Source: Bacteroidota bacterium
GTDB lineage: Bacteria; Bacteroidota; Bacteroidia; B-17B0; Aurantibacillaceae
DNA: 64,000 nucleotides
Direction: 5' to 3'
Assembly: GCA_030692515.1 (NCBI GenBank)
Contig: JAUXZS010000016.1
Location: forward strand, 68,313-132,312
Below, in pieces: positions 1-15,195 of this stretch. Both the position numbers and the translations under genes were made by a program. Numbering within the stretch: the first letter of the stretch is position 1; the number at the start of each line of letters is the position of its first letter. Below the pieces are notes generated by a model. It saw nothing but the letters and a program-made list of their open reading frames with translations. It did no database searches and was not told the DNA's origin.

Positions 1-531
1 GTCTTACTCACTATACCTCATGAAATAATTACCAATAAGATTTTTTTTATCAGAGGACAAAAGGTTATGCTTGATAGCGATCTTGCAGAACTTTATGAAG
101 TTGAAGCAAGAGTTTTGAATCAGGCTGTGAATAGAAATGAATACCGATTTCATGAGGATTTTAAGTTTAAACTTAGTGAAGAAGAATGGAACAACTTGAA
201 ATCACAATTTGTGACATCAAGTTGGGGAGGAAGGCGAAAGTTGCCCTTTGTATTTACTGAACATGGAGTTCTAATGCTTTCAAGTGTATTAAACAGTAGA
301 AGAGCGATTGATTTGAATATTCTGATTATGAGAGTTTTTTCACATATCCGCAAAATGCTTACAGAAAACACCGAATTGCGTTTAGCAATTGAAAAGCTAG
401 AAAAGAAAAGTGATAATCACTCTAAAAACATAGAGCTGGTTTTTAAATATCTCGACGAACTCCTCGAGAAAAAAGAAAACAATATCCCACGCAAATCTAT
501 TGGGTATAAATTACCAAATAAGAAAAGCTAA
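1..531 (+). CDS. ORF6N-domain (KilA-N-like) DNA-binding protein; the 5' end runs off the left edge of the window
   Basis: Frame 1 is open from base 1 (...IFFIRGQKV precedes the first in-frame ATG at 67). The blocks IRGQKVMLDSDLAELY, RNxxRFxxDFKFKLS and GGRRKLPFVFTEHGVLMLSSVL match the ORF6N family as I recall it. Stop TAA at 529-531. Confidence 0.7.
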   Translation, partial: VLLTIPHEIITNKIFFIRGQKVMLDSDLAELYEVEARVLNQAVNRNEYRFHEDFKFKLSEEEWNNLKSQFVTSSWGGRRKLPFVFTEHGVLMLSSVLNSRRAIDLNILIMRVFSHIRKMLTENTELRLAIEKLEKKSDNHSKNIELVFKYLDELLEKKENNIPRKSIGYKLPNKKS

Positions 532-532
532 T

Positions 533-1003
533 CTATTCAACCTTCCTTTTATCCTGTCTAAAATCTTTCCAAGTAAATACAATTGGCAGAGCTTTAACCA
601 TGATTGAAAACGCATTGATAATATATATCTGTTGATAGACTTTAAAATACAAACAACCTAAAGAATCTATTATAACCCAAAAGCTAAATGCTATAATAAT
701 AGCGTTTCTCGCCCATACTTTTTTTTCTTTAAATGGATACCAAGCTATAAAAGCTAACAAAATGTAGCAACAAGCAATAGTTCCACCAAAAGGTAAATAA
801 ACAAAGGCACGAAAAACATCAGCCTCAGGCGGAAACTCAGATGAATGCCAAAGTGAATTGGCGACCATTTTTTCGTATGGCAAAAAAAATAAATTATTTC
901 CAAGAAATGCAAATGCAATACCCGCTAAAGCAAAAATTAAACTTGAGTAGAATAACCATCTTTGCCAAAATAAAAATTGGTTGTCTTTAAAATGGTTTGC
1001 CAT
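533..1003 (-). CDS. small integral membrane protein (about 4 TM helices), last gene of the type III PKS operon
   Basis: 156-aa ORF with four long hydrophobic stretches. Its start overlaps the stop of the upstream flavoenzyme gene by 17 nt, which suggests translational coupling. I recognise no family motif. Confidence 0.5.
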   Translation of the reverse strand: MANHFKDNQFLFWQRWLFYSSLIFALAGIAFAFLGNNLFFLPYEKMVANSLWHSSEFPPEADVFRAFVYLPFGGTIACCYILLAFIAWYPFKEKKVWARNAIIIAFSFWVIIDSLGCLYFKVYQQIYIINAFSIMVKALPIVFTWKDFRQDKRKVE

Positions 1004-2105
1004 GAGTTAATTTTATTACTCTGTTTGCTAATGAAGGAAATAAATTAAAAAGTTGAATACTTAGTTTTGTTAAAAATGAAAATTCGGAAAGTTTTTGGAA
1101 ATAACGGCTTAATTTAATTCTCATGGAAAATTCTTTATTCCAAAATAATTTATAATTTTCAATTAATTGTTGTTTTGAAATTTTACTAGAAAAGTAATTA
1201 TCAAGATTAGAAGCCAATACAGAAGCCGACTTAAAACAAATACTCATCCCGTTTCCAGTAATTGGAGCAATACTTCCAGCAGAGTCTCCAAGATAAAACA
1301 CACTATCATAAATCGGAACTTTAATCCTGAAATTAATTCCACTTATTGTAACCGGCACTTTCGTAATAAACTCAGCCGTATCAAATATTCTTTTTAAATT
1401 TTTATTTTGATGCAAATATTTTTTTTCAAGTTCAAGAATAGAATTGCCTGCATTATTTAGCATTTTTGAATTTACAATATAACACAAGCAAGATTTACCA
1501 TCTTCTACATTTGAAATCCCACAATAGCCTCCAGGGAAATTATGTATTTCAATTTGCGTTGCATCCCTTTCCATTTTTATATGATACTTTACACCAATAT
1601 AATTTGTTCGAACGCGCGAGCTAATATTTTCTTTGGCTTCAAAATTTGATTTTCTTCCAGATGAGTTGCAAACAATAGTTGAAATGTAATTATTTGAATT
1701 TGTTGTAACGGAATAATCATTGGTATTAAAATCAAACTTAACTTCTAATGCCTTTTCATTAAGCGCAAAAACAACACCTAGATTTTTTGCTTCAATAAAA
1801 AGCAAATTTTCCAGTAGGTAACGACTAATGCCAAACCCACCTAAATCAAGAATAGTTTTAAACTCCCTCTCACCAATTGAACTTAATTTAAATTTATTTA
1901 TTAAAGGTAAATTTCTATTTTTTAGTTCAGGGCAAATAGTTTTTAAATAATCGTATGATTCCATTGAGATATATTCTCCACAAACTTTATTGCGTGGGTA
2001 ATCACCTTTCTCAATTACTACAATTGTGTACCCTCTTTTTCTAAGGTCAATTGCCAAAGATAATCCTGCAAGTCCGCCGCCAATTATGGTTACATCATAC
2101 TTCAT
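987..2105 (-). CDS. FAD-dependent oxidoreductase (flavin monooxygenase / geranylgeranyl-reductase-like)
   Basis: N-terminal dinucleotide fold VTIIGGGLAGLSLA...VIEKG and the GDSAGSIAPITGNGMS flavoprotein motif. Its ATGA start/stop overlaps the methyltransferase gene. Confidence 0.75.
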   Translation of the reverse strand: MKYDVTIIGGGLAGLSLAIDLRKRGYTIVVIEKGDYPRNKVCGEYISMESYDYLKTICPELKNRNLPLINKFKLSSIGEREFKTILDLGGFGISRYLLENLLFIEAKNLGVVFALNEKALEVKFDFNTNDYSVTTNSNNYISTIVCNSSGRKSNFEAKENISSRVRTNYIGVKYHIKMERDATQIEIHNFPGGYCGISNVEDGKSCLCYIVNSKMLNNAGNSILELEKKYLHQNKNLKRIFDTAEFITKVPVTISGINFRIKVPIYDSVFYLGDSAGSIAPITGNGMSICFKSASVLASNLDNYFSSKISKQQLIENYKLFWNKEFSMRIKLSRYFQKLSEFSFLTKLSIQLFNLFPSLANRVIKLTHGKPF

Positions 2106-2800
2106 TTGTAAGCAACTAATCGGTATCTAAATGCCCAAGTCCACTTTATGGTATATTCATTAAACCCTGCTTTTTTAATTAAGGTAATTAATTCCTGTTT
2201 TTTAAATCCTCTTTTTACAGATAGAGGCGCATCGTTTTTTACTAAATAAGATTTTGAGAATAGTGCAGTAAAAAATTTTATAGAGTAATAAGCAAAGCAA
2301 TGGCGATGTAGGTCGTTAACTAAAACAATACAATTATTTGCCTTACTAAACTTAAATAAATCTATTATTTCGTCATCTTTAAGATGATGAAGAAATAGAC
2401 TACAATGAATTACATCAATCTTATTTAAAAGTTCATCCGAAATATTTCGATAGTCATTACAAATTAATTCCTTATTCTGAAATTCTAAAAGATTATCTTT
2501 TGCATAATTTACACAATCCACTTTTAAATCTACTCCGTAAAAAAATAACTTTAAATTCAACTTATCAGCAAATAAAGAAAGTTGCTTTATAGAATCACCG
2601 CCTCCAAAGCCAATATCTAAAATAGTTTTAACTTGTTTTTTTGTTTTTAAAATATCGTTTAAACCTTTTAAAGAAGCATTATATCCGCCTAAATACTTAT
2701 TAATAATATCTAATTCTAATAAATTTCTATAAAGATCTTTGGTTTCAATAATGCTATTGTCCAAATATTCCTTTTCGTAAGATCTAACACTCAACAGCAT
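2102..2800 (-). CDS. class I SAM-dependent methyltransferase
   Basis: SAM motif I ILDIGFGGGD, followed by the acidic-loop and post-I pattern of class I methyltransferases. Overlaps the PKS gene by 17 nt. Confidence 0.75.
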   Translation of the reverse strand: MLLSVRSYEKEYLDNSIIETKDLYRNLLELDIINKYLGGYNASLKGLNDILKTKKQVKTILDIGFGGGDSIKQLSLFADKLNLKLFFYGVDLKVDCVNYAKDNLLEFQNKELICNDYRNISDELLNKIDVIHCSLFLHHLKDDEIIDLFKFSKANNCIVLVNDLHRHCFAYYSIKFFTALFSKSYLVKNDAPLSVKRGFKKQELITLIKKAGFNEYTIKWTWAFRYRLVAYK

Positions 2801-3926
2801 GACGTTTTATTTGCTCTAATTTATTAGGATGAGAAGTATATACCGATGAAAAACTAATCATTTCAATGCTTAATCCGGGACCAAAAGCACAACAAAATAT
2901 TTTTTTATTTTCAATAGAATCAGCATCCTTTATTTTATCAAATACTTTTTCTAAAACAAACAAAATAGTAGGCGACGACATATTACCATATTGTTTTAAA
3001 ACATTCAATGAATCTTCTACATCCTCTTCGCTCAAATTTAAACTTTCCTTAACCGCTTGCACAATTTTAACACCGCCTGGATGTATTGCCCAATAATCGG
3101 GTTTGCTGTCAATTAAAAAATCAGTTACAACAGGGTATATATTATCCTTAATAGAATTTACAATCTTTTTGTTAAGATACATCCTAAACGCTGAGGATGA
3201 AATATCCCAAGTCATCAAATCTAATGTATTTGGAATGTAGGACGATCCTATTTCATCAATATTTAAAACTATTCTATTTCCTGAATGTTTATAACCATCT
3301 CCACACACAAATGTTGCCGCAGCTCCATCTGCAAATAACAAATTAGCAATTATATCTTCATCAGATAATGAAGGCGAAAAATGTAACGAGCATAATTCCG
3401 CACTAATAATAAGCACACAAGCATCAGGACTTGCCTCTGCAATATATTTTGCATGTTTAAGCGCTTTAATAGCTGCATAACAACCTAAAAAATTTAAAGC
3501 CAATTTTTCTGTATGTTGAAGTCCATGATTTTCTGCTACTAAAAACTCAAAACCTGGCGCGAATAAGCCCGTGCAGCTAACAGTAATTAAATGAGTAACT
3601 TCTTTAGGCTTTATATCCGTTTTTGCAAACAATTTTTCAATTGCCATCGAGGCAAGAGGCATAATTTTTTTTTTATATAATTCCGTTCTTCTTTCAACGC
3701 TTTGATTAAAATTTTTCTCGGTAAATAACTCGTAATCCCTTCCGTTAAAGTCGGGTATGCAACTATAGCGTTTTTGTATTTTTGTTTTTTCATTTAACAG
3801 CGTCAACTTTTGTTTATTTGAATCTGCATCCTTTGATAGTAAAGCCCTTGAATAAAACTCTACTAACTCTTCGCTTGAAACTGTGTACTCAGGAACAGCG
3901 GTTGCTATATCAATTATATATGCCAT
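2784..3926 (-). CDS. type III polyketide synthase (chalcone/stilbene synthase superfamily)
   Basis: The Cys-His-Asn triad sits in the expected contexts: VSCTGLFAPG, WAIHPGG and YGNMSSPT. Length is 380 aa. Confidence 0.85.
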   Translation of the reverse strand: MAYIIDIATAVPEYTVSSEELVEFYSRALLSKDADSNKQKLTLLNEKTKIQKRYSCIPDFNGRDYELFTEKNFNQSVERRTELYKKKIMPLASMAIEKLFAKTDIKPKEVTHLITVSCTGLFAPGFEFLVAENHGLQHTEKLALNFLGCYAAIKALKHAKYIAEASPDACVLIISAELCSLHFSPSLSDEDIIANLLFADGAAATFVCGDGYKHSGNRIVLNIDEIGSSYIPNTLDLMTWDISSSAFRMYLNKKIVNSIKDNIYPVVTDFLIDSKPDYWAIHPGGVKIVQAVKESLNLSEEDVEDSLNVLKQYGNMSSPTILFVLEKVFDKIKDADSIENKKIFCCAFGPGLSIEMISFSSVYTSHPNKLEQIKRHAVEC

Positions 3927-3932
3927 ATGGTT

Positions 3933-4784
3933 TTATTTTAATAACAACAAAATGAAATAAATATTGTTTAACACAGATGACAGAACTAGCATTATCATTG
4001 TATTTTTAAAATTAATGTGCCGTTCACTTTTAAATGATTTTACCATCCATATTAAAAAAAATAGCGTAGCGGGCAACATAATAACAATATAAAGCAAAAA
4101 ATTATTTATCATAACGGGGCTGCTAAACGATAAATAAACAAACAATGTCGCTATTGAAAACATTAATCCAGAAAAAATAAACGTTCCCCTCTTTCCTAGC
4201 ATCATGCTTAGAGTTTTTACACCATCATTCTTATCAGCTTGATGTTGGTATATTTGAGTAATAGGATAAACAGTTCCTATAAAAAAAGATGAAGCTATTG
4301 CCGAAAATATAACAGATTTATTTGATAGTAAGGTAACAGAAGAAAGCGCGAAAAAATTGGCAAAAAACACCCAAGCACCTTGAAAAATAAAAACAATTAA
4401 AAATCCTACAATTGGAAATTTTTTTAATCGAATTTTTCTATAACTATAAAGACGAGATGCAAGTATATATAATACAACAAAAAAAGCAAATGATGCATTA
4501 ACTATAAAAGAAAGTAAAACCGCTGTAACGTCAAACAAATTTGACATCTGCAAAAGCAGGCCTGTTGGCTTGGGTGGCGCTGCTAAACCGCCGATTGGTC
4601 CATCATCCATATCGTTATAACTATTATAGCCATTACTGGATGGAAAAACTAACAGATGCCAAATTATTAAAACAAGTATTAATTGATAATTGAAATCAGG
4701 TTGAATATAAAAAAATGAAAATAGAGATATAGGCAGTAAAAAAACTGAAAAAGGAAATCTTAAAAGCTTAATTGTGTCATACAT
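3933..4784 (-). CDS. UbiA-family aromatic prenyltransferase (polytopic membrane protein)
   Basis: About 8-9 hydrophobic helices and two Asp-rich motifs, NSYNDMDDG and QHQADKNDG. It lies 6 nt upstream of the PKS gene. Confidence 0.75.
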   Translation of the reverse strand: MYDTIKLLRFPFSVFLLPISLFSFFYIQPDFNYQLILVLIIWHLLVFPSSNGYNSYNDMDDGPIGGLAAPPKPTGLLLQMSNLFDVTAVLLSFIVNASFAFFVVLYILASRLYSYRKIRLKKFPIVGFLIVFIFQGAWVFFANFFALSSVTLLSNKSVIFSAIASSFFIGTVYPITQIYQHQADKNDGVKTLSMMLGKRGTFIFSGLMFSIATLFVYLSFSSPVMINNFLLYIVIMLPATLFFLIWMVKSFKSERHINFKNTMIMLVLSSVLNNIYFILLLLK

Positions 4785-5096
4785 TCAATTGTAAATCTAA
4801 TCTAATTTTATTTATCACTAAAATTACTTGGGCGTAAGGCTAGAAAATTACATAACTCTTAAAATATTTTACATTATTCACGCATTTTATGCTTTTGCCT
4901 TCACATCCGTAAGTCGTATGTGTATAATACCTATCATAAGCTCTTTAATGAACCATTGATTGAACTCTTTTGAATCCTAAGCCCTGACCTACTAAATTTT
5001 ATTTGAATTTATTCGTCTACAAATCCTTTCCATTAAATTAACATTAGTTTAAATTAATTTTTTACAACTTTATGCTACATAAATTGTTTAGTAAAG

Positions 5097-6191
5097 GTGT
5101 TAGGATACAGATTTAAAAATTTTATTGCCGATCCAAAATCGAAGTTTGATGAATTGTTTAAGATTTTTAAACAGCTCATTACGCACACCAGTGGCGATGT
5201 GGAAGAAGCGCTAGATTGGTTTAAACAACTCGATAAAGAGTATGAGTTAACTAATAAAGATTACACCTTAGATGATTTTATTGCTGAACTAAAAAAACGT
5301 GGGTATTTACGTGATAAAAAAGATGGCACAGGCGGCATGGCAATTACCCCTAAAACCGAACAAGCTATTCGCAACAATGCCTTAGAACATATTTTTGGAA
5401 AATTAAAAAAAGGGGCTTCCGGAAATCATAAAACAAAATTTACCGGCAAAAATGGCGAGGAAACAAGCAGCGATTTAAGAGCTTATGAGTTTGGCGATTC
5501 GCCACAAAGTATTGCCATGATAGACTCGATTAAACAAGCGCAAATAAATAACGGCACCGAAAATTTTATTTTAACCGAAAATGATTTATTGGTTGGCGAA
5601 CAAGAATTTAAAACGCAAACCGCTACTGTGTTAATGATTGATATTAGTCATAGTATGATATTATATGGCGAAGACAGAATAACACCCGCAAAAATGGTGG
5701 CGATGGCAATGGCCGAAATGATTAAACGCAATTACTCAAAAGATAGTTTGGATATTATTGTGTTTGGAAATGATGCTTGGCCAATTCAAGTTAAAGACTT
5801 ACCCTATTTACAAGTTGGGCCTTATCACACAAATACTGTTGCGGGTCTTGAGTTGGCAATGTCTATTTTAAGAAAAAAGAAAGCTAGCAACAAACAAATT
5901 TTTATGATTACCGATGGTAAGCCATCTTGCTTAAAAGAGAATGGGCAATATTACATGAACAGTAATGGCTTAGATAGACGTATTGTAAATAAATGTTTAA
6001 CACTTGCGGCAGCTTGTAAACGAAGTAAAATTGACATAACTACTTTTATGGTTGCTAACGATAGATATTTACAAAATTTTATTGATGAGTTTACTGAAGC
6101 CAACCAAGGCAAAGCATATTTTACTGGATTAAAGGGTTTAGGTGAAATGATTTTTAGAGATTACACAAATAAGAAACGAAAGAAAATATGA
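5097..6191 (+). CDS. von Willebrand factor A (VWA) domain protein
   Basis: MIDAS-type motif LMIDISHSM, later TNTVAGL and FMITDGKPS, typical of VWA folds. GTG start at 5097, so the start is uncertain. Confidence 0.7.
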   Translation: MLGYRFKNFIADPKSKFDELFKIFKQLITHTSGDVEEALDWFKQLDKEYELTNKDYTLDDFIAELKKRGYLRDKKDGTGGMAITPKTEQAIRNNALEHIFGKLKKGASGNHKTKFTGKNGEETSSDLRAYEFGDSPQSIAMIDSIKQAQINNGTENFILTENDLLVGEQEFKTQTATVLMIDISHSMILYGEDRITPAKMVAMAMAEMIKRNYSKDSLDIIVFGNDAWPIQVKDLPYLQVGPYHTNTVAGLELAMSILRKKKASNKQIFMITDGKPSCLKENGQYYMNSNGLDRRIVNKCLTLAAACKRSKIDITTFMVANDRYLQNFIDEFTEANQGKAYFTGLKGLGEMIFRDYTNKKRKKI

Positions 6192-6325: not shown

Positions 6326-7804
6326 ATGAGTCAACCTACAATAAAAACATTAGGCGAATTAAAAAAAACAGATTACAAATTTTTAAGTATTAAGGATGAG
6401 CTTCGCGAAAATTTAATTAGCAAGCTTAAAAACAAACAACCCATTTTTGATGGTATTTTTGGTTACGAAGAAACTGTTATTCCCGAAATTGAACGCGCCA
6501 TTTTAAGTCACCATAACATTTTATTTTTAGGCTTACGAGGTCAAGCAAAAACAAAAATGGCTAGGCAATTAGTAAATTTATTAGATGAATATATTCCGGT
6601 TATTGCCGGTAGTCCTTTAAACGACGACCCTTTACAACCGATCTCTAATTTTGCTAAAAATTTAATTACCGAAAAAGCAGAAGCAACACCAATAACTTGG
6701 ATTCACAGAAGCGAACGCTTTGCCGAAAAATTAGCAACGCCAGATGTAAGCGTAGCCGATTTAATTGGCGACTTAGATCCCATTAAAGCTGCAAATTTAA
6801 AATTATCTTTTGCTGATGAAAACGTAATTCATTACGGATTAATTCCTCGCAGTAATCGTTTTATTTTTGTCATTAACGAACTACCCGATTTGCAAGCGCG
6901 TTTGCAAGTTGCACTCTTTAATATTTTACAAGAAGGCGATGTGCAAATTAGAGGGTTTAATTTACGCATACCTTTAGATTTACAATTTGTGTTTACAGCA
7001 AACCCCGAAGACTACACCAATCGCGGAAGTATTGTAACACCGCTTAAAGATAGAATTGGCTCTCAAATATTAACGCATTATCCAAAATCAATAGAACACT
7101 CAAAACAAATTACACAAGACCAAGCGAAATTAAACAAGCAACAAAAACAAATAGAAGTTCCTGAAATTTTAAAAAATTTAGTAGAGCAAATTGCGATTGA
7201 AGCTCGCACGAGTGAATTTGTAGATTCTAAAAGTGGCGTTAGTGCCCGTTTAACTATTAGCGCTTACGAAAGTTTAATTAGCGCTGCAGAATTACGTTTT
7301 TTGAAAAATGATTTGCCATACTCGTATGCACGCATAAGCGACTTATACTCAGCGGTGCCTGCTATAAACGGAAAAATAGAATTAGTGTACGAGGGCGAAC
7401 AAGAAGGTCCTGCAATTATTGCGCAAAACTTAATTAGTTTAGCAATAAGAAATACATTTGTTCAATTGTTTCCAGACCCTGAAAAATTAAAACGTAAAAA
7501 AGAACAGTCAGATTATGCCACCATCATTAATTGGTTTTCGTCAAATAATATTTTAGACTTGTTAGAAAATGAAAATGATAAAGTGTATTCTTCTGCATTA
7601 CTTGTTGTAGAAGGATTAGAAGACTTGATTACAAAATATCATCCCAATGTAAAAGGCGCTGATAAATTTGTGTTGATGGAATTTGCCTTACACGGCTTAG
7701 CAGAACACTCTTTACTAAGTAAAAATAAATTAGTAGATGGCACCAGCTTTAAAGATTTGTTTGGCTCTCTTTTAAATCAGAATTTAAATTTTGATAAAGG
7801 ATAA
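6326..7804 (+). CDS. AAA+ ATPase of the Mg-chelatase (BchI/ChlI)-like class with atypical Walker motifs
   Basis: ILFLGLRGQAKTKMARQLVNLL aligns by eye with the BchI P-loop region. FIFVINELPDLQ...LFNILQEG..QIRG aligns with BchI Walker B and sensor blocks. Confidence 0.6.
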   Translation: MSQPTIKTLGELKKTDYKFLSIKDELRENLISKLKNKQPIFDGIFGYEETVIPEIERAILSHHNILFLGLRGQAKTKMARQLVNLLDEYIPVIAGSPLNDDPLQPISNFAKNLITEKAEATPITWIHRSERFAEKLATPDVSVADLIGDLDPIKAANLKLSFADENVIHYGLIPRSNRFIFVINELPDLQARLQVALFNILQEGDVQIRGFNLRIPLDLQFVFTANPEDYTNRGSIVTPLKDRIGSQILTHYPKSIEHSKQITQDQAKLNKQQKQIEVPEILKNLVEQIAIEARTSEFVDSKSGVSARLTISAYESLISAAELRFLKNDLPYSYARISDLYSAVPAINGKIELVYEGEQEGPAIIAQNLISLAIRNTFVQLFPDPEKLKRKKEQSDYATIINWFSSNNILDLLENENDKVYSSALLVVEGLEDLITKYHPNVKGADKFVLMEFALHGLAEHSLLSKNKLVDGTSFKDLFGSLLNQNLNFDKG

Positions 7805-7806
7805 AA

Positions 7807-8301
7807 TTAAACCATAAAACTATTTCTTAGGGCAAGCATTTTAATTGCGGTAATTGCGGCTTCATCTCCTTTGTTACCGTACTTTCCACCCGAACGGTCA
7901 AGAGCTTGTTGTTGATTATTTGGTGTTAACACACCAAAAATAAAAGGAATATTATAGTTGATATTCAAATCGGTAATTCCTTTTGCAACAGCGTCGCAAA
8001 TAAAATCAAAGTGGCGAGTCTCGCCTTGTATCACACAACCTAAACAAATAACAGCATCCACATCGGTGGCCTCCGCTATATACTGAGCACCAAGAGTTAA
8101 TTCAAAACTGCCTGGCACTTCGCGAATAATAATATTTTCTTTTTCAGCGCCATTCGCTAACAAAGTTTTTACAGCGCCTTCTTTAAGCGCATTGGTTATT
8201 TCGTGATTCCATTCCGAGCAAACTATTCCAAATTTAAAATATTTTGCGTTTGGAATTTGACTGCCTTCTGTTTGCGATAAGTTTTTGTTTACACTGCTCA
8301 T
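7807..8301 (-). CDS. ribH: 6,7-dimethyl-8-ribityllumazine synthase
   Basis: FGIVCSEWNHEIT, VPGSFELTLGA, VICLGCVIQGETRHFDF and GVLTPNN are hallmark RibH blocks. Confidence 0.9.
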   Translation of the reverse strand: MSSVNKNLSQTEGSQIPNAKYFKFGIVCSEWNHEITNALKEGAVKTLLANGAEKENIIIREVPGSFELTLGAQYIAEATDVDAVICLGCVIQGETRHFDFICDAVAKGITDLNINYNIPFIFGVLTPNNQQQALDRSGGKYGNKGDEAAITAIKMLALRNSFMV

Positions 8302-8380
8302 AGTTTCTAAAAAAATATTGTTAACGTCAGTTCGAGTGCCTTTTCGCTTTGCCTCTTGCGAAAAATTTCATAGAGAAAAT

Positions 8381-8410
8381 AAAAAAGTCTGCTTGTAGGC
8401 AGACTTTTTA
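8381..8410 (-). terminator. intrinsic terminator downstream of the TPR gene and upstream of ribH
   Basis: AGTCTGC / GCAGACT 7-bp stem with a 6-nt loop, flanked by an A-run and a T-run. On the minus strand the stem is followed by TTTTTT. Confidence 0.65.
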
Positions 8411-8426
8411 TCAAAAAAAATATTAA

Positions 8427-9191
8427 TTATAAATTTCCTAAGGCTTTAACTTTTGCGATATCTCTTTCAATTTCTTTTCCTTCATTGCTTTTTGTATATT
8501 CTTTTTGAATACGCTCGTATAAAGCTAATGCCTCAGAAAAATTAGCTTTTTGCTCATAAGCAAAACCAGCTTTTTTAAGATAATAAGGCGTTGTAAAATC
8601 ATTTTCGCTTTTATCTGCAGCTTTTAAATAAAATTTAATGGCGTCATCAACTTTATTTAATTCCATATTACAATCTCCAACAGCTCCAATTGCTATAGGC
8701 GCAACCATCTCATCATCTCCATCATATTTTTGCAAAAACTCAATTGCTTGCTCATACTTACCTGTGCGCAAATAACAAATCCCAGCGCAATAATTAGCTA
8801 GGCTTCCTGTTTTTGTCATGCTGTATTCGTCTGCAATTTGCTCAAAACCCATTATTGTTTTCTGACCATCTGGCGACATTACAGTTACTCCACCTTTTAA
8901 AGCAATGTTAAAACTATCTGCTTCAAAATAATTTTGAGCCCAAAAAATTTCATTAGACGCTTCGTTTTCTTTTTCAGGCAAATACATCATTTTAAAATAT
9001 ACTATAGCAGCAATTAACACCAATGCTCCACCACCAACGTAAGTAACCATCTTTTTATTTTTCTCATAAAAAAGCTGTATTCCTTGCAGGCTAGGGTCAA
9101 TAGGTTTATTGGGAGTTTCCTCTACTGTTTCTTCGATATTTTCGTTTATCTCAGTATTATCTACAGTTGTTTCGTCTTTTAAATCAGCCAT
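8427..9191 (-). CDS. membrane-anchored tetratricopeptide-repeat protein
   Basis: One TM helix (VTYVGGGALVLIAAIVYF) followed by TPR-like repeats (AIEFLQKY, AIKFYLKAA, ALALYERI). Confidence 0.6.
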   Translation of the reverse strand: MADLKDETTVDNTEINENIEETVEETPNKPIDPSLQGIQLFYEKNKKMVTYVGGGALVLIAAIVYFKMMYLPEKENEASNEIFWAQNYFEADSFNIALKGGVTVMSPDGQKTIMGFEQIADEYSMTKTGSLANYCAGICYLRTGKYEQAIEFLQKYDGDDEMVAPIAIGAVGDCNMELNKVDDAIKFYLKAADKSENDFTTPYYLKKAGFAYEQKANFSEALALYERIQKEYTKSNEGKEIERDIAKVKALGNL

Positions 9192-9291: not shown

Positions 9292-10401
9292 ATGTATTTA
9301 AAGCAACTTTCCATAATAAATTTCAAAAACTATGCAGAATTTGAGGGGCAATTCTCTAAAAAGATTAATTGTTTTGTGGGAAATAATGGCATGGGTAAAA
9401 CCAATTTGTTAGACGCCATCCACTATCTTTCTTTTTGCAAAAGTTTTTTTAATTCTATTGATAGTCAAAATATAAAACACAACGAAGGTTTTTTTGTGCT
9501 TCAAGGAAATTTCGAAAAGTCTGGAGAGCCTTCTGATGTTTATTGTGGTTTAAAACGTAATCAAAAAAAAATATTTAAAAAAAATAAAAGAGAGTACGAA
9601 CGTTTAAGCGAACATATTGGTCAGTTTCCTTTAGTAATGATTTCGCCAAGTGATGCTGATTTAATAAATGGAAGTAGTGATATACGACGTAAGTTTTTAG
9701 ACGGAATTATTTCGCAATACGATAAAGTTTATTTAGATAAATTAATTTCATACATACATGTTTTAAAACAAAGAAATGCTTTACTAAAACAGTTTTATGA
9801 AAACAGAACTTTTGATTCTGAATCTTTAGAAATTTGGGACGATCAATTAATTAATTATGGAGCTTCTATTTTAGAAATTCGTCAGCAATTTTTAAAACAT
9901 TTTATTCCTTTGTTTAACTCTCATTATCAATTTATAAGCGAAAGCAAAGAAGAAGTTGCTTTGCATTATGAAAACAGCTTAGGAGAAAAAGATTTTAAAA
10001 CGGCCATTATTACCTCTCTTGCCCGCGACAGAAGTGTTAATTACACAACTGTTGGCCCTCATAAAGATGATTTAGAGTTTACATTGAATGATTTTAGTTT
10101 AAAAAAGTTTGCCTCGCAAGGACAACAAAAATCATACTTACTCGCATTAAAGTTGGCACAATTTGAATTTATTAAAGAACAAAAAAACATAAAACCTTTA
10201 TTATTATTAGATGATGTTTATGATAAATTAGATGAGGAGCGCTTCTCTAAATTATTAGAGATGGTAAGTGGTGATGCTTTTGGACAAGTATTTATTACAG
10301 ATACTCATCCCGAAAGAATTGAACATTTGCTCAATAAAAAACAAATAGAAAATAAAATTTTTATTGTTGGCGAAGGTTATGCAAAATTAATTGAAACCTG
10401 A
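9292..10401 (+). CDS. recF: DNA replication and repair protein RecF
   Basis: MYLKQLSIINFKNY start and Walker A GNNGMGKTNLLDA. SMC-like signature SQGQQKS and Walker B LLLLDDV. A TAnnTTTG box at 9275-9282 favours the ATG at 9292 over the TTG at 9244. Confidence 0.85.
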   Translation: MYLKQLSIINFKNYAEFEGQFSKKINCFVGNNGMGKTNLLDAIHYLSFCKSFFNSIDSQNIKHNEGFFVLQGNFEKSGEPSDVYCGLKRNQKKIFKKNKREYERLSEHIGQFPLVMISPSDADLINGSSDIRRKFLDGIISQYDKVYLDKLISYIHVLKQRNALLKQFYENRTFDSESLEIWDDQLINYGASILEIRQQFLKHFIPLFNSHYQFISESKEEVALHYENSLGEKDFKTAIITSLARDRSVNYTTVGPHKDDLEFTLNDFSLKKFASQGQQKSYLLALKLAQFEFIKEQKNIKPLLLLDDVYDKLDEERFSKLLEMVSGDAFGQVFITDTHPERIEHLLNKKQIENKIFIVGEGYAKLIET

Positions 10402-10413
10402 TTCTTTACATTT

Positions 10414-10546
10414 TTAAACCAGATAGTAACATAGCTTTTTCTTATTGCAAAAAAATAGTTCTCCTGACTCTTGAAGCAACGTTTCAACCCTTATGTTAAA
10501 CTAAATAAAAATCTTGAAAATATTAACTATGTGCCTATGTGGTTAA
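10414..10546. repeat. long imperfect inverted repeat built of CATAG-type units at the recF/asnS convergent junction
   Basis: The left arm TTAAACCAGATAGTAACATAG matches the reverse complement of CTATGTGCCTATGTGGTTAA at 17 of 20 positions with one gap. The arms are about 92 nt apart. Confidence 0.55.
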
Positions 10547-10570
10547 TAACATCCAGAGAAAAATCTCTAA

Positions 10571-12004
10571 TTAAAACTCACAATTTTTTGGTGTACGCGG
10601 AAAAGGAATTACATCACGAATATTTGTCATGCCGGTAACAAACAAAACCAAACGCTCAAAACCTAAACCAAATCCCGCATGCGGACAAGTCCCAAATCTT
10701 CTAGTATCTAAATACCACGACAAATCTTCCAAAGGAATACCTATTTCATTCATGCGCGTTTCTAGTTTTTCTAAACGTTCTTCACGCTGAGAACCACCAA
10801 CAATTTCTCCAATACCGGGAAATAAAATATCCATTGCGGCTACAGTTTTTCCATCATCATTCTGACGCATGTAAAACGATTTTATTTCTTTAGGATAATC
10901 CGTTAAAATAACTGGCTTTCTAAAATGCTTTTCAACCAAATAGCGCTCATGCTCACTCTGTAAATCAACACCCCACTTATCTATTAAATATTGAAATTTC
11001 TTTTTCTTGTTGTGGTTACTCTCTCTTAATATTTCAATTGCTTGAGTATACGTAACACGTTCAAATTTATTTTCTAAACAAAATTTTAATTTATCCAATA
11101 AGGATAATTCGCTTCTTTCGTTTTGAGGCTTTTGTTTTTCCTCCTCCTCTAAACGTTGAGATAAAAATTCTAGGTCTTCTAAATTATTATCTAAAGCATG
11201 TTTAATTACATATTGCAACATTTCTTCAGCCAAATCCATATTATCCTTTAACTCATAAAAGGCCATCTCCGGTTCAATCATCCAAAATTCTGCTAAATGG
11301 CGAGCGGTGTTACTATTCTCTGCTCTAAAAGTTGGACCAAAAGTATAAATATCAGAAAAAGCCATTGCCGCTAACTCGCCTTCTAATTGTCCTGATACCG
11401 TAAGGTTTACAGATTTACCAAAAAAATCTTGTTTATAATCAATTGCTCCGTTTTCATCTTTTGGAGGATTTGCAATATCAAAATTAGTAACATGAAACAT
11501 TTCCCCTGCTCCTTCAGCATCACTGGATGTGATGATAGGTGTATGAATGTATAAGAATCCTTTTTCATTAAAAAATTTGTGTACCGCAAAGGCTAAACTA
11601 TTACGAACACGAAATACAGCGCCAAAAGTATTTGTACGAAAACGTAAATGCGCTATTTCACGCAAAAATTCTAAACTATGTTTTTTAGGTTGTAAAGGAT
11701 ATTTTTCAGCATCACTATCTCCAATAATTTCAACAGAAGTAGCTTTCACTTCAACTGTTTGCCCTTTACCTTGCGAGGCAATTAAAATTCCGGTAGCACT
11801 AATAGCTGCGCCTGTTGTAATACGTTTAAGAATTTCTTCGGGTGTAGTTGTAAAGTCAACTACAACCTGCAAATTATTATTAGTAGAGCCGTCATTTAAT
11901 GCAATGAATGAATTGTTTCTGAATGTACGCACCCAACCTTTTACAGTAATTGTTTGGTTTGTTGGTGTTGTTTTAAGAATATCTTTTATTCGTATACGGC
12001 TCAT
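10571..12004 (-). CDS. asnS: asparagine--tRNA ligase
   Basis: Class IIb aaRS blocks: OB-fold N-terminus, [29 protein letters not shown], and C-terminal [10 protein letters not shown]...IPFPR. Confidence 0.92.
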
Positions 12005-12095
12005 AATAACTTCTAATTTAAGAGTTCAAATTTAAGAAGATTTTAGTGATAATGTCACGATATTTCAACGGCCATAAAGAATAATTTAAAGAAAA

Positions 12096-12338
12096 TCAAC
12101 CTTCCTTAACCCTCATGTACTCTTCTTCACTAATCTCTTCCGCCATTTCAAAATAATTAATTACCAAATCATGAATAAAAACCATTTCCGGAAACTGATT
12201 TGCTTCCGTTAATTTAATTACCTTTTTACTACCTATAATCTGTATTTCCTCAAACAATTTAGGTTGTATAATTTTAAAATAACTCTTGCTATTTTTATAC
12301 TTACGGTAAACCGGAAAGTTTATATCTTTAAAATCCAT
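12096..12338 (-). CDS. hypothetical 80-aa protein upstream of asnS
   Basis: Only an uninterrupted ORF with an ATG in a non-overlapped gap. No motif recognised. Confidence 0.35.
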   Translation of the reverse strand: MDFKDINFPVYRKYKNSKSYFKIIQPKLFEEIQIIGSKKVIKLTEANQFPEMVFIHDLVINYFEMAEEISEEEYMRVKEG

Positions 12339-15195
12339 GGCTAAGCCTTTTTTAAAATTAATTGCAGAATACGTTTTCGAAAATTACAAAGATAATTTAG
12401 AACAACTATGTATTATTTTACCTAATAAACGTGGCGCTTTATTTTTAAAGAATTATTTAGCGCAAACCTTTGGTAAAACAATTTGGCTCCCAACTATTAT
12501 AAGTGCCGAAGATTTAATTGCCGAGTTAAGCGAATTAAAAACTCTTGAGGAAATAGATTTAATTTGTTATTTATACGATAGCTATAAAATTTGCTATGGT
12601 AGCGAAGCTGAAAATTTTGACAGCTTTGCCAAATGGGGACAATTAATTTTACAAGATTTTAATGAGATTGATAGATATTTAGCCGACTCTGAACAACTTT
12701 ATGAAAACCTTAAAGACATTAAAGTTCTTGAGAATTGGAGTCTTGGTGCCGAAACATTAAGTGAATACCAAACCAACTATTTAAAATTTATGAATAGTTT
12801 GGGGCCAATTTACAAACACTTTAGTAATTTTTTAGTTTCAAAAAAATGGGCCTATCAAGGATTAGCATACAAACACGCGGTATTAAATTTTGATAATAGT
12901 AATTACCCCAATCAATTTTATAAACTAATTTTTTGCGGCTTTAATGCCTTAAATGCTGCAGAACTAAACATCTTTAATAAATTATACCTTCAAAAAAAAG
13001 CGGATATTTTATGGGATGCTGATGAGTATTATTTAAAAGATAAAAATCAAGAAGCCGGTTTGTTTCTTAGAAATAATTTTAACTTATTTCAACAGCGCGA
13101 ACCGTCGTTTATCCAAAATAATTTTATTGAAGATAAAACTATTCAAATAATTTCGGTACCAAAACAAATTGGGCAAGCGCAAGTTGTAAAACAAACCGTA
13201 CAAAAATTTATCGACGATAATATTCCCTTAGATAAAGTTGCTATAGTTTTGGCAAATGAAAAATTATTGTGGCCAGTGTTACAACAATTGCCAAGCGGCG
13301 TAGAGCATGTAAACATCACTATGGAATACCCATTGCGATACACTTCTACATATAGCTTAATTGAACAGTTGTTGCAACTACAATTAAGTTTTTCGAAACA
13401 AACTAGACAACATAAAACAATTTATCATAAAGATTTAATAGCTCTTTTACGCCAGCCTATTTTTGCAACCTATTTACGCAACAAAAATAGTGGCTTAGAT
13501 ATTTCAAAAATAATTAATCAAATTACTGAAAGAAATATATCTTTTATTACATCAAAAAATTTAACTCAACTTTTTAATACAGAAAATACGACGCTTTTTA
13601 ATTTATTACAACCTGCAAAATCTGTAAGTGATTTGTGCAGCCATTATTTACAATTGCTTCAAAATATAAAGGAACTATTTATTGCACAACCATCTACTAA
13701 TCAATCAAGTTTAGAATTGGAATATTTACAAATCATTATTAAAAACTTCAATCGTTTAACCGAAATAATTCAAAAATACCCACACTTTAATGATGTGTTA
13801 TCGTTTAAACAATTGTTTGGCCAAATAGTTGGCAACTCCTCTGCTCCATTTATTGGCGAGCCTTTAAGAGGTTTGCAAATTATGGGTGTTTTAGAAACGC
13901 GAACTTTAGATTTTGACCATGTAGTATTTGTAAATGTAAATGAAAGTGTTTTACCCTCTGGCAAAACTGTAAATTCATTTATACCAAATGATTTAAAGAG
14001 AGCGTTTGGTTTACCGCTTTATATAGAAAAAGATGCGATATATGCATATCACTTTTATAGGTTATTACAAAGAGCAAGCGATGTTGTTATTACTTATGAC
14101 AGTGAAACAGACACTTTTGGAAAAGGAGAAAAAAGCAGATTTGTTACTCAGCTACAATTAGAAATGCAAGTAACCAATCCCAATATTAAAATCTCCGAAG
14201 AGGTTGCTTTATTTTCACAATTCCCGAAAGAGCTTGAAAATGTTATTACGATCATTAAGGACGAAGAAGTACTATCCCCCATTTATCAAAAGGCAATTAG
14301 CAACCAAGAATTTGGCGCGCTTTCTCCATCAGGATTAATTTCTTTTAAGGAGTGTAGCTTGAAATTTTACTTTAGATATGGCGCCAAATTAAAAGAGACA
14401 AAAGAAGTAGAAGAAAGTGCTGAAGCAAATACATTTGGTTCTATTTTACATTTGAGTTTAGAAAATTTATACAAAGGTTTTATCGGGAAAATTTTAAACG
14501 AAAACGAACTAAAAGAAAAAATAAAGCAAATTGAAAGCATTGTTCACCAGAGCTTTATCAGCTTTTTTGATAATTCAGAAATTATTGGGAAAGGGATTTT
14601 ACAAAAAGAAGTAATTCAGGTTTATGTAGAGAAATTGATTAAAAAAGACATTCGTTTTGTAAATAAACTAAAGGAAGAAAACCAATACCTTACTTTAAAA
14701 AATTTAGAGCAAGAATTATCTGCGGCTTTAGAAATTGATATTAATGGCGTGCCAACAACAATTTATATAAAAGGAAAAATTGACAGAATTGATTCGCACG
14801 AAGGAAAAACCAGAATAATAGATTACAAAAGCTCTCTAAAATCTTCAGATAAATTTTCGTTTACGTCGTTCGATGAATTATTTTTGAATACAGAATACAA
14901 TAAACAATTTCAATTATTTATGTATGCTTGGTTATTATTTAAAAATAATTATTGCGCTCCCGAGCAAATGCAACCTTGTATTATTCCCTTTAAAAACTTT
15001 TTAGAAGAGCCCAAATATATTTCAAGAGATAAAAATCCACTTGTTTTCACGAAAGATTTTTTAATTGATTTTGAAAATGAACTGAAACGTTTTGTTGAAA
15101 ATATTTTCGAAAACACTATTCCCTTTTCACAAACAGAAGATGAAGACATTTGTGAATACTGCGCTTATAATGTGATTTGTAATAGACAAAAATAA
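12337..15195 (+). CDS. PD-(D/E)XK nuclease family protein, AddB/RexB-like
   Basis: 952 aa. C-terminal nuclease motif GKIDRID...RIIDYKSS and a terminal Cys cluster, CEYCAYNVIC, as in AddB-type Fe-S nuclease domains. Confidence 0.7.
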   Translation: MAKPFLKLIAEYVFENYKDNLEQLCIILPNKRGALFLKNYLAQTFGKTIWLPTIISAEDLIAELSELKTLEEIDLICYLYDSYKICYGSEAENFDSFAKWGQLILQDFNEIDRYLADSEQLYENLKDIKVLENWSLGAETLSEYQTNYLKFMNSLGPIYKHFSNFLVSKKWAYQGLAYKHAVLNFDNSNYPNQFYKLIFCGFNALNAAELNIFNKLYLQKKADILWDADEYYLKDKNQEAGLFLRNNFNLFQQREPSFIQNNFIEDKTIQIISVPKQIGQAQVVKQTVQKFIDDNIPLDKVAIVLANEKLLWPVLQQLPSGVEHVNITMEYPLRYTSTYSLIEQLLQLQLSFSKQTRQHKTIYHKDLIALLRQPIFATYLRNKNSGLDISKIINQITERNISFITSKNLTQLFNTENTTLFNLLQPAKSVSDLCSHYLQLLQNIKELFIAQPSTNQSSLELEYLQIIIKNFNRLTEIIQKYPHFNDVLSFKQLFGQIVGNSSAPFIGEPLRGLQIMGVLETRTLDFDHVVFVNVNESVLPSGKTVNSFIPNDLKRAFGLPLYIEKDAIYAYHFYRLLQRASDVVITYDSETDTFGKGEKSRFVTQLQLEMQVTNPNIKISEEVALFSQFPKELENVITIIKDEEVLSPIYQKAISNQEFGALSPSGLISFKECSLKFYFRYGAKLKETKEVEESAEANTFGSILHLSLENLYKGFIGKILNENELKEKIKQIESIVHQSFISFFDNSEIIGKGILQKEVIQVYVEKLIKKDIRFVNKLKEENQYLTLKNLEQELSAALEIDINGVPTTIYIKGKIDRIDSHEGKTRIIDYKSSLKSSDKFSFTSFDELFLNTEYNKQFQLFMYAWLLFKNNYCAPEQMQPCIIPFKNFLEEPKYISRDKNPLVFTKDFLIDFENELKRFVENIFENTIPFSQTEDEDICEYCAYNVICNRQK

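Follow-up and report, generated by a model that had tools for sequence, protein, structure and literature searches.

What would a bacterium of the phylum Bacteroidota build with a prenyltransferase, a type III polyketide synthase (PKS), a methyltransferase and a flavoenzyme encoded side by side, and do these genes belong together at all? The question is raised by a 64,000-nucleotide stretch of contig JAUXZS010000016.1 (positions 68,313 to 132,312; assembly GCA_030692515.1, Aurantibacillaceae), called the window throughout, in which five genes on the minus strand occupy positions 533-4784. The four enzyme genes form a cassette that recurs across Bacteroidota. By analogy with characterised systems we put at roughly 60% the probability that the product of this conserved operon family is a phenolic lipid of the membrane, made from a polyketide primed with a fatty acyl group. 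The five genes, from first to last in the operon, and the region in front of them are as follows.

4785-5096, no strand: intergenic region that separates the UbiA gene from a divergent plus-strand VWA gene, 312 bp, AT-rich, presumed to hold the operon promoter.
3933-4784, minus strand: UbiA-superfamily membrane prenyltransferase (PF01040), 283 aa, about eight transmembrane segments; first operon gene.
2784-3926, minus strand: type III PKS, 380 aa, Chal_sti_synt_N and Chal_sti_synt_C domains.
2102-2800, minus strand: soluble class I S-adenosylmethionine (SAM)-dependent methyltransferase, 232 aa, PF13649, PRK06202-like.
987-2105, minus strand: flavin adenine dinucleotide (FAD) flavoenzyme of a geranylgeranyl (GG)-reductase-like clade, 372 aa, TIGR02032-related, FAD Rossmann fold by Pfam.
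533-1003, minus strand: small integral membrane protein, 156 aa, four hydrophobic transmembrane helices and one shorter helix; last operon gene.

The gene calls are open reading frames (ORFs) on the minus strand of the window, and they lie exactly where the first-pass annotation, which was made from the letters alone, had placed five genes with one gap and three overlaps. The UbiA and PKS genes are separated by 6 nt (3927-3932); the later junctions are overlaps of 17 nt (PKS/methyltransferase, 2784-2800), 4 nt (methyltransferase/flavoenzyme, an ATGA at 2102-2105) and 17 nt (flavoenzyme/small membrane protein, 987-1003). The start codons of the PKS and of the small membrane protein are supported by a Met1 that is invariant in the alignments, and those of the methyltransferase and the flavoenzyme are credible in that conservation starts within the first 6-10 residues. 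Tightly packed in this way, the five genes form a single operon-like unit. A terminator scan gave no terminator-like site on the minus strand within the operon; the promoter and terminator scan is uninformative here, with sigma-70 models that leave Bacteroidota promoters uncovered (16 sites were found against 27 expected).

One genome per species was scanned with the PKS, which gave at least 594 relatives; the best 80 loci were analysed by tblastn with the five window proteins, and the fractions below refer to testable loci. The UbiA gene adjoins the PKS gene in 64/73 loci, the methyltransferase gene accompanies it in 65/76 and the flavoenzyme gene in 48/58. The gene set had been described as an orphan; it is a widespread, conserved Bacteroidota cassette instead, with all four core genes in 48 of the 59 testable species-level loci. 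Carriers include Dyadobacter, Chitinophagaceae, Puia, Segetibacter, Haliscomenobacter, Saprospiraceae and Cyclobacteriaceae. Dozens of genomes that are only distantly related keep the gene order, with 35-65% identity between the proteins: 43 loci have the colinear order of the window (UbiA>PKS>MT>FAD, where MT is the methyltransferase and FAD the flavoenzyme) and five have the rearranged order FAD> <UbiA PKS> MT> (Cyclobacteriaceae, Roseivirga, Chryseolinea and Flammeovirgaceae), while the PKS stands alone in Rhodothermota (Salinivenus) and a few others. Recurrence of one four-gene order at this level of identity takes the arrangement far beyond chance: selection has kept the four core genes together as a cassette, and they are not neighbours by accident. 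The view that the five genes are accidental neighbours with no common pathway retains next to no probability: the ORFs overlap, and a four-gene order shared by 48/59 loci across families effectively refutes it. A synteny search had been proposed for the five-gene unit as a whole; the tblastn comparison found the core widely kept and the fifth gene only sometimes linked. The top matches of the window proteins are proteins of Bacteroidota metagenome-assembled genomes (MAGs), at 96-98% identity. In two of the sampled loci, designated L010 and L004 in our numbering, some genes match as two overlapping pieces in different frames (L010, PKS at 8001-9145 and flavoenzyme at 9830-10944; L004, methyltransferase at 1609-2408); these are likely to be assembly frameshifts or pseudogenes in the MAGs concerned.

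The four enzyme assignments of the first-pass annotation stand at the level of Pfam families, and all of the peptides on which it relied (VSCTGLFAPG, IHPGG, GNMSSP, ILDIGFGGGD, IIGGGLAGL, GDSAGSIAPITGNG, NSYNDMDDG and QHQADKNDG) are present in the translations. The PKS belongs to the chalcone/stilbene synthase superfamily, scoring 100.8 bits with PF00195 (Chal_sti_synt_N) and 72.9 bits with PF02797 (Chal_sti_synt_C) against cut-offs of 27. Its catalytic triad, Cys118/His282/Asn315, does not vary among 15 homologues and is conserved to 90% or more among 80. The homologues scored exceed 7,900, and the nearest is a Bacteroidota MAG protein at 98% identity; the best 120 matches listed for the PKS and for the flavoenzyme are all from Bacteroidota. 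In a tblastn search of plasmids, the actinomycete type III PKS loci that were found were all of other kinds than srs or agq.

The best relatives of the PKS in the PDB (E of about 1e-35 to 1e-38) include enzymes that handle alkyl chains, namely olivetol/tetraketide synthase (6GW3), the Ectocarpus PKS (4B0N), PKS18 of Mycobacterium tuberculosis (1TED) and Steely1 (2H84). Resorcinol- and pyrone-forming enzymes score alike among these closest solved relatives; aldol (C2-C7) cyclisation of a fatty-acyl-primed tetraketide to a resorcinol would be expected of the PKS if it belongs with the alkylresorcinol synthases (SrsA, AgqA, ArsB and HidC). The PKS might instead form an alkylpyrone or another non-resorcinol scaffold, as ArsC, PKS18 and BpsA do; tailoring would then act on a pyrone hydroxyl, and the product would be a methylated, prenylated alkylpyrone and not a hydroquinone. 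The methylated alkylpyrones of BpsA/BpsB are a precedent, the long-chain pyrone synthase PKS18 is among the nearest structures, and several PKS homologues are named ‘alpha-pyrone synthase’ by JGI. These names are automatic annotations, however; the resorcinol-forming olivetol (tetraketide) synthase and Steely1 score equally well or better, and in all the characterised operons where a type III PKS gene stands with genes for a flavin hydroxylase and a methyltransferase (srs, agq and hid), the starting point is an alkylresorcinol. We regard a pyrone as quite unlikely.

The UbiA protein is a member of its superfamily by Pfam (PF01040, 61 bits against a cut-off of 34.2), by its multiple transmembrane segments (eight by hydropathy) and by two Asp-rich motifs, in which N54, D58, D60 and D184 are invariant in 19 homologues. 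It scores below every NCBIfam equivalog (UbiA, MenA, ChlG, DGGGPS and CyoE), the best match being PRK12884 with 31.7 bits against a cut-off of 269. A single-sequence search of the PDB with it gave no match, and a profile search gave marginal ones (best ApUbiA, 4OD4, E=0.0085; chlorophyll synthase is also only marginally similar). No homologue was found in the plasmid search. On these sequence comparisons the window protein belongs to a divergent, Bacteroidota-centred UbiA subfamily.

Genes for isoprenoid metabolism lie near the cluster in some genomes. Most Dyadobacter clusters converge on a crtI-crtB-idi-crtZ group (L013, 10906-14345 on the minus strand; also L015, L025, L027, L030, L031, L041 and L066), and two converge on idi alone (L026 and L039). 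At L003, the closest locus that carries the small membrane protein, the gene for that protein is followed, in the same direction, by genes (11358-12373, plus strand) for a second small membrane protein (173 aa, about three transmembrane segments) and an isopentenyl diphosphate isomerase (idi). Flanking idi and carotenoid genes fit a demand for prenyl units; in Dyadobacter the neighbourhood may reflect a shared prenyl supply or merely genus-level synteny.

The methyltransferase matches PF13649 with 31.6 bits (cut-off 27), and its motif diG.GGGD is conserved among homologues. Only class I SAM families were matched; hydropathy gave no transmembrane segment, and Pfam no match to the isoprenylcysteine carboxyl methyltransferase (ICMT) family. 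The best family is NF004851/PRK06202, matched over the full length with 119.7 bits, below the cut-off of 243, and a single-sequence PDB search returned one marginal match only. The PKS-adjacent methyltransferase of Deinococcus radiodurans is a full PRK06202 member (334.5 bits) and is linked to the window protein by phmmer at E=1e-18; in Methylobacterium and Mesorhizobium, too, a homologous methyltransferase gene comes after the type III PKS gene. Judged by these scores, the window methyltransferase is a member of a sister family related to PRK06202, not of PRK06202 itself. On plasmid 3 of D. radiodurans (L081, 5995-8954) the PRK06202 gene lies between genes for a type III PKS and a flavin hydroxylase, followed by a glycosyltransferase and a PLD-like gene. 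NF004851/PRK06202, at present a ‘hypothetical’ NCBIfam family, appears to be a type III-PKS-associated methyltransferase family whose name could be improved.

By sequence the flavoenzyme is no ordinary hydroxylase but falls into a GG-reductase-like clade. Its best hidden Markov model (HMM) family is TIGR02032 (GG-red-SF), matched over the full length with 87.7 bits. Lower matches are LodB and QhpG, annotated as protein-maturation flavoenzymes (about 46-47 bits), and GoxB (33 bits). The motifs GD.AG..P..GNGM and KVCGEYIS are largely invariant in homologues. Two roles compete: hydroxylation of the aromatic ring, which we consider likely, and saturation of the prenyl chain.

Several observations weigh against hydroxylation. 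The best sequence families of the enzyme are geranylgeranyl reductases (GGRs); Sulfolobus GGR is among its best PDB sequence matches, and the invariant Cys42 aligns with a cysteine of that enzyme which we take to be catalytic. The GDxAG...P.TG.G motif looks GGR-type in our own reading, some homologues carry the JGI name ‘menaquinone-9 beta-reductase’, and the Actinoplanes missouriensis products discussed below bear a dihydrogeranyl group. Since the sequence is closest to the GGR superfamily, prenyl reduction is a real alternative, if an unlikely one. The product would then be a methylated alkylresorcinol with a partly or fully reduced prenyl chain and with no extra ring hydroxyl or quinone chemistry, an outcome to which we likewise give only a minor share of the probability.

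Against prenyl reduction, the TIGR02032 score lies well under the family cut-off of 158.8, and the predicted structure points elsewhere. The AlphaFold2 (AF2) model of the flavoenzyme (mean predicted local distance difference test score, pLDDT, 86.5) is ranked by Foldseek with PqsL, Bmp2, 3-hydroxybenzoate 6-hydroxylase (TM-score 0.84), PHBH, KMO and phenol/pyrrole halogenases; aromatic hydroxylases and halogenases come first, and GGR structures are absent from the top 50. With TM-scores of 0.72-0.84 to PqsL, 3-hydroxybenzoate 6-hydroxylase and PHBH (E of about 1e-18 to 1e-21), the model is predicted to have the class A aromatic hydroxylase (PHBH) fold. Among the next-best families, QhpG is named a flavin-dependent monooxygenase in NCBIfam, and LodB, GoxB and QhpG are all, we presume, aromatic-ring hydroxylases.

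The genomic partners of the enzyme also bear on the choice. Eight of 11 plasmid-borne homologues are co-located with a type III PKS match. Homologues adjoin type III PKS genes in Novosphingobium (98 bits), Mesorhizobium (78 bits) and Methylobacterium (34 bits), in loci without a prenyltransferase; at the plasmid loci inspected, in Novosphingobium and Mesorhizobium, none was present. In D. radiodurans the slot of the flavoenzyme is taken by a canonical class A aromatic hydroxylase. At L090 (3321-8456, plus strand) the GG-reductase-like gene is missing and a 533-aa PRK06184-/aklavinone-hydroxylase-like gene lies just upstream of UbiA. Both cases look like non-orthologous replacements. Ring hydroxylation is thus favoured by the hydroxylase-like fold of the model, by PKS partners that have no prenyltransferase, by replacement with canonical hydroxylases and by LodB, QhpG and GoxB as next-best families. 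Type III PKS genes are consistent partners of the GG-reductase-like clade, whose members are probably ring hydroxylases.

Two further contexts of the clade were observed. On plasmid pLA3 of Novosphingobium pentaromativorans (L088, 2413-6056) acyl carrier protein (ACP) and ketosynthase genes precede the type III PKS and the flavoenzyme homologue, with a divergent methyltransferase gene nearby, which suggests a dedicated supply of starter units in the Novosphingobium version. On plasmid pHsw1 of Hymenobacter swuensis (L086, 2048-7062) a 33%-identical homologue comes not after a PKS gene but after genes for an isonitrile synthase family protein and a TauD/TfdA dioxygenase; the clade therefore serves other pathways too.

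The same structural matches raise a third role, that of a flavin-dependent halogenase acting on the phenolic ring. The pyrrole/phenol halogenases Mpy16 and Bmp2 are among the top PDB profile matches (48.7 and 45.8 bits), several halogenases stand in the Foldseek top 10, and hierridin C is chlorinated yet has no assigned halogenase. Flavin-dependent halogenases have the signature WxWxIP. It is absent from the flavoenzyme: the presumed equivalent site reads E-I-H-N-F-P, an E-x-H-N-F-P pattern in which E186, H188, N189 and F190 are invariant, and the operon encodes no flavin reductase partner. A halogenase is very improbable, and we rejected this role because the signature is missing.

How much of this architecture has been described before was judged, for the agq, srs and hid systems, by enzyme class and gene order. 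The first-pass annotation had treated the UbiA gene as an addition. All four enzyme classes (type III PKS, flavin hydroxylase, methyltransferase and UbiA-like prenyltransferase) are already combined in one small operon, agqABCD of A. missouriensis, a likeness that holds at class level only. The gene order differs, since that of agq, which we take to be PKS-hydroxylase-methyltransferase-prenyltransferase, stands against prenyltransferase-PKS-methyltransferase-flavoenzyme here. Among the Agq proteins no counterpart of the small membrane protein is known to us, nor is any agq gene that accounts for the dihydrogeranyl reduction. The products named for agqABCD are 6-alkyl-4-O-dihydrogeranyl-2-methoxyhydroquinones, and the prenyltransferase of the operon is reported to O-prenylate a small polyketide (Awakawa et al., 2011, ChemBioChem 12:439). 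The actinomycetote system makes a prenylated, methylated phenolic lipid from an alkylresorcinol, as would its Bacteroidota counterpart. With agqABCD already characterised, the proposed chemistry is reasonable and the architecture is not new.

Colinearity with srsABC of Streptomyces griseus had also been claimed, and it holds for the order, in which PKS, methyltransferase and flavoenzyme genes follow one another identically, and for the shared logic of resorcinol formation, methylation and hydroxylation. It does not extend to homology: srsB homologues are membrane ICMT-family enzymes, isoprenylcysteine carboxyl methyltransferases (PMC6669644), whereas the window methyltransferase is a soluble class I SAM enzyme. 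A PKS-ICMT pair was found in a Rhizobium locus. The srs operon has neither a UbiA gene nor the small membrane protein, both of which are present in the window. In the hidABC (hierridin) clusters of picocyanobacteria a type III PKS is joined by a SAM-dependent methyltransferase and an FAD-dependent oxidoreductase, and one of the orders found, hidC>hidA>hidB, matches PKS>MT>FAD. The products are methoxylated alkylphenols, and the clusters lack a UbiA gene, save for one Raphidiopsis cluster with a prenyltransferase. By enzyme type and order the hierridin cluster is the nearest characterised analogue of the PKS>MT>FAD core.

The same trio, in the order of the window, occurs in D. radiodurans, Methylobacterium and Mesorhizobium, with homologous methyltransferases (E=1e-18 to 5e-9) and, in Deinococcus and Mesorhizobium, genes that overlap by 4-8 nt; in Novosphingobium the flavoenzyme homologue directly follows the PKS. 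The Deinococcus and alphaproteobacterial trios lack UbiA and the small membrane protein, and the Deinococcus flavoenzyme is of canonical class A, not GG-reductase-like. Mycobacterial and Streptomyces polyketide-quinone loci are similar in function only: they share the idea of a quinone-like lipid in the membrane with a head group that a type III PKS supplies in place of chorismate. To our knowledge these systems involve no UbiA prenylation. According to a 2026 survey, an srs-like operon of Jiangella has a UbiA gene next to it, and the genes listed for a type III PKS cluster of Micromonospora include those for a UbiA prenyltransferase and a methyltransferase. In genome-mining surveys the type III PKS clusters of Bacteroidota are entered with no known cluster that resembles them. 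Two other candidates were set aside: the UbiA operon ebo/Ubi-297, from marine Flavobacteria (PMC9235831), consists of other genes (eboA-E) and includes no type III PKS gene, and the DarAB route to flexirubins and dialkylresorcinols is ketosynthase-based and unrelated. The enzyme combination is known already; what is distinctive at the level of sequence families is the divergent UbiA, the PRK06202-like methyltransferase, the GG-reductase-like flavoenzyme and the optional membrane protein without a Pfam family.

A polyketide-derived, methylated, oxidised and prenylated phenolic lipid, as had been proposed, remains the most reasonable product of the cassette. We infer the substrate, the order of the steps, their regiochemistry, the prenyl chain length and the physiological role from family membership and from the characterised systems. 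The type III PKS would take its starter, a fatty acyl-CoA or acyl-ACP, from primary metabolism, extend it by about three malonyl-CoA units and cyclise the chain to a 5-alkylresorcinol-type ring. The GG-reductase-like flavoenzyme would hydroxylate this ring to an alkyl-benzenetriol (hydroxyquinol), which the class I SAM methyltransferase would O-methylate to an alkyl-methoxy-hydroquinone that could be oxidised to a quinone. The membrane UbiA enzyme would add a prenyl chain, either through oxygen, as AgqD does, or through carbon, as classical quinone prenyltransferases do. The cassette is widespread, and its mechanism would be predictable from precedent. The first-pass annotation knew of no characterised product for it in Bacteroidota; none was found in the searchable literature, which omits most subscription journals.

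The lipid may be protective, as in S. griseus, where alkylresorcinols and alkylquinones made by srsABC confer beta-lactam tolerance (Funabashi, 2008), or it may be a redox carrier, like the polyketide quinones of mycobacteria and Streptomyces; both were considered. In the latter case the chemistry would be the same and the product a redox-active ‘polyketide quinone’, an alternative respiratory carrier beside menaquinone and not a protective or structural lipid. Type III PKS quinones are reported to carry electrons in mycobacteria (Anand, 2015), and such a role is also described for a Streptomyces strain (PMC9927152). The set of hydroxylase, O-methyltransferase and UbiA mirrors ubiquinone tailoring, and the operon is kept across many aerobic Bacteroidota. 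The O-prenyl ether made by AgqD, on the other hand, blocks quinone formation at that oxygen, and the cluster is patchily distributed in variable genomic contexts. We consider a respiratory carrier possible, though on the doubtful side. A further-reaching proposal is that the cassette makes an undescribed class of C-prenylated, methoxylated alkyl-benzoquinone, an isoprenoid quinone resembling ubiquinone or plastoquinone but with a ring derived from a type III PKS and not from chorismate. Such a quinone would join menaquinone in the membrane as a further redox carrier or as an antioxidant; the ring hydroxylase would come from a GG-reductase-like lineage, with the small membrane protein as a dedicated partner. 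This proposal is tentative, and the odds are clearly against it.

The small membrane protein had been counted as part of the operon. It lies outside the conserved core: it was found in 3/59 testable loci of the synteny sample and is unlinked to the cluster in some genomes. In the window, in L003 and in L093 its gene comes after the flavoenzyme gene, and locus-tag order apparently indicates the same for two named MAGs. The gene lies between the methyltransferase and flavoenzyme genes in L018, on the opposite strand in L035 and directly after the methyltransferase gene in L090; it is also cluster-linked in L091 and L094, and stands alone in L092, L095 and L096. The small membrane protein is thus a lineage-restricted, frequently recruited accessory. 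Hydropathy gives four transmembrane segments, and no Pfam family matched the protein or 10 distant or duplicated members of its family. Its 304 close homologues are all named ‘hypothetical’, and the family comprises 505 clusters at 50% identity. Members of about 290-310 aa (P0362, P0372-P0378 and others) contain two matched stretches and look, in sequence, like a tandem duplication or fusion of the 150-aa unit. The AF2 model is a helical bundle (pLDDT 75.8), for which a fold search of the PDB gave no significant match (best NACHO/TMEM35A, E=3). Speculatively, the protein may serve in membrane handling or in tethering of the soluble enzymes.

On one side the operon meets an ORF6N-domain gene (67-531, plus strand; PF10543, 100.5 bits) that converges on it with a single base between the two stops (531 and 533). 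ORF6N domains are typical of antirepressor-like proteins of phages and mobile elements. Divergently upstream lie a VWA-domain gene (5097-6191, plus strand) and an AAA/Mg-chelatase-like (MoxR-type) ATPase gene (6326-7804, plus strand), a pair that is not kept beside the cluster in related loci. Across the whole window (1-64000) no tRNA, tmRNA or Rfam family was found at the gathering threshold.

Communities of soil, fresh water, the sea and plants are rich in Bacteroidota. If a prenylated phenolic lipid or quinone could be assigned to so common a four-gene cassette, there would be a class of products to test for in the type III PKS clusters of the phylum. For annotation, the flavoprotein clade could be recorded as a partner of type III PKS genes and PRK06202 as a PKS-associated methyltransferase. 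If the proposed product is correct, agq-type chemistry extends beyond the actinomycetes, and these bacteria would possess a new membrane constituent relevant to stress or antibiotic tolerance or to respiration.

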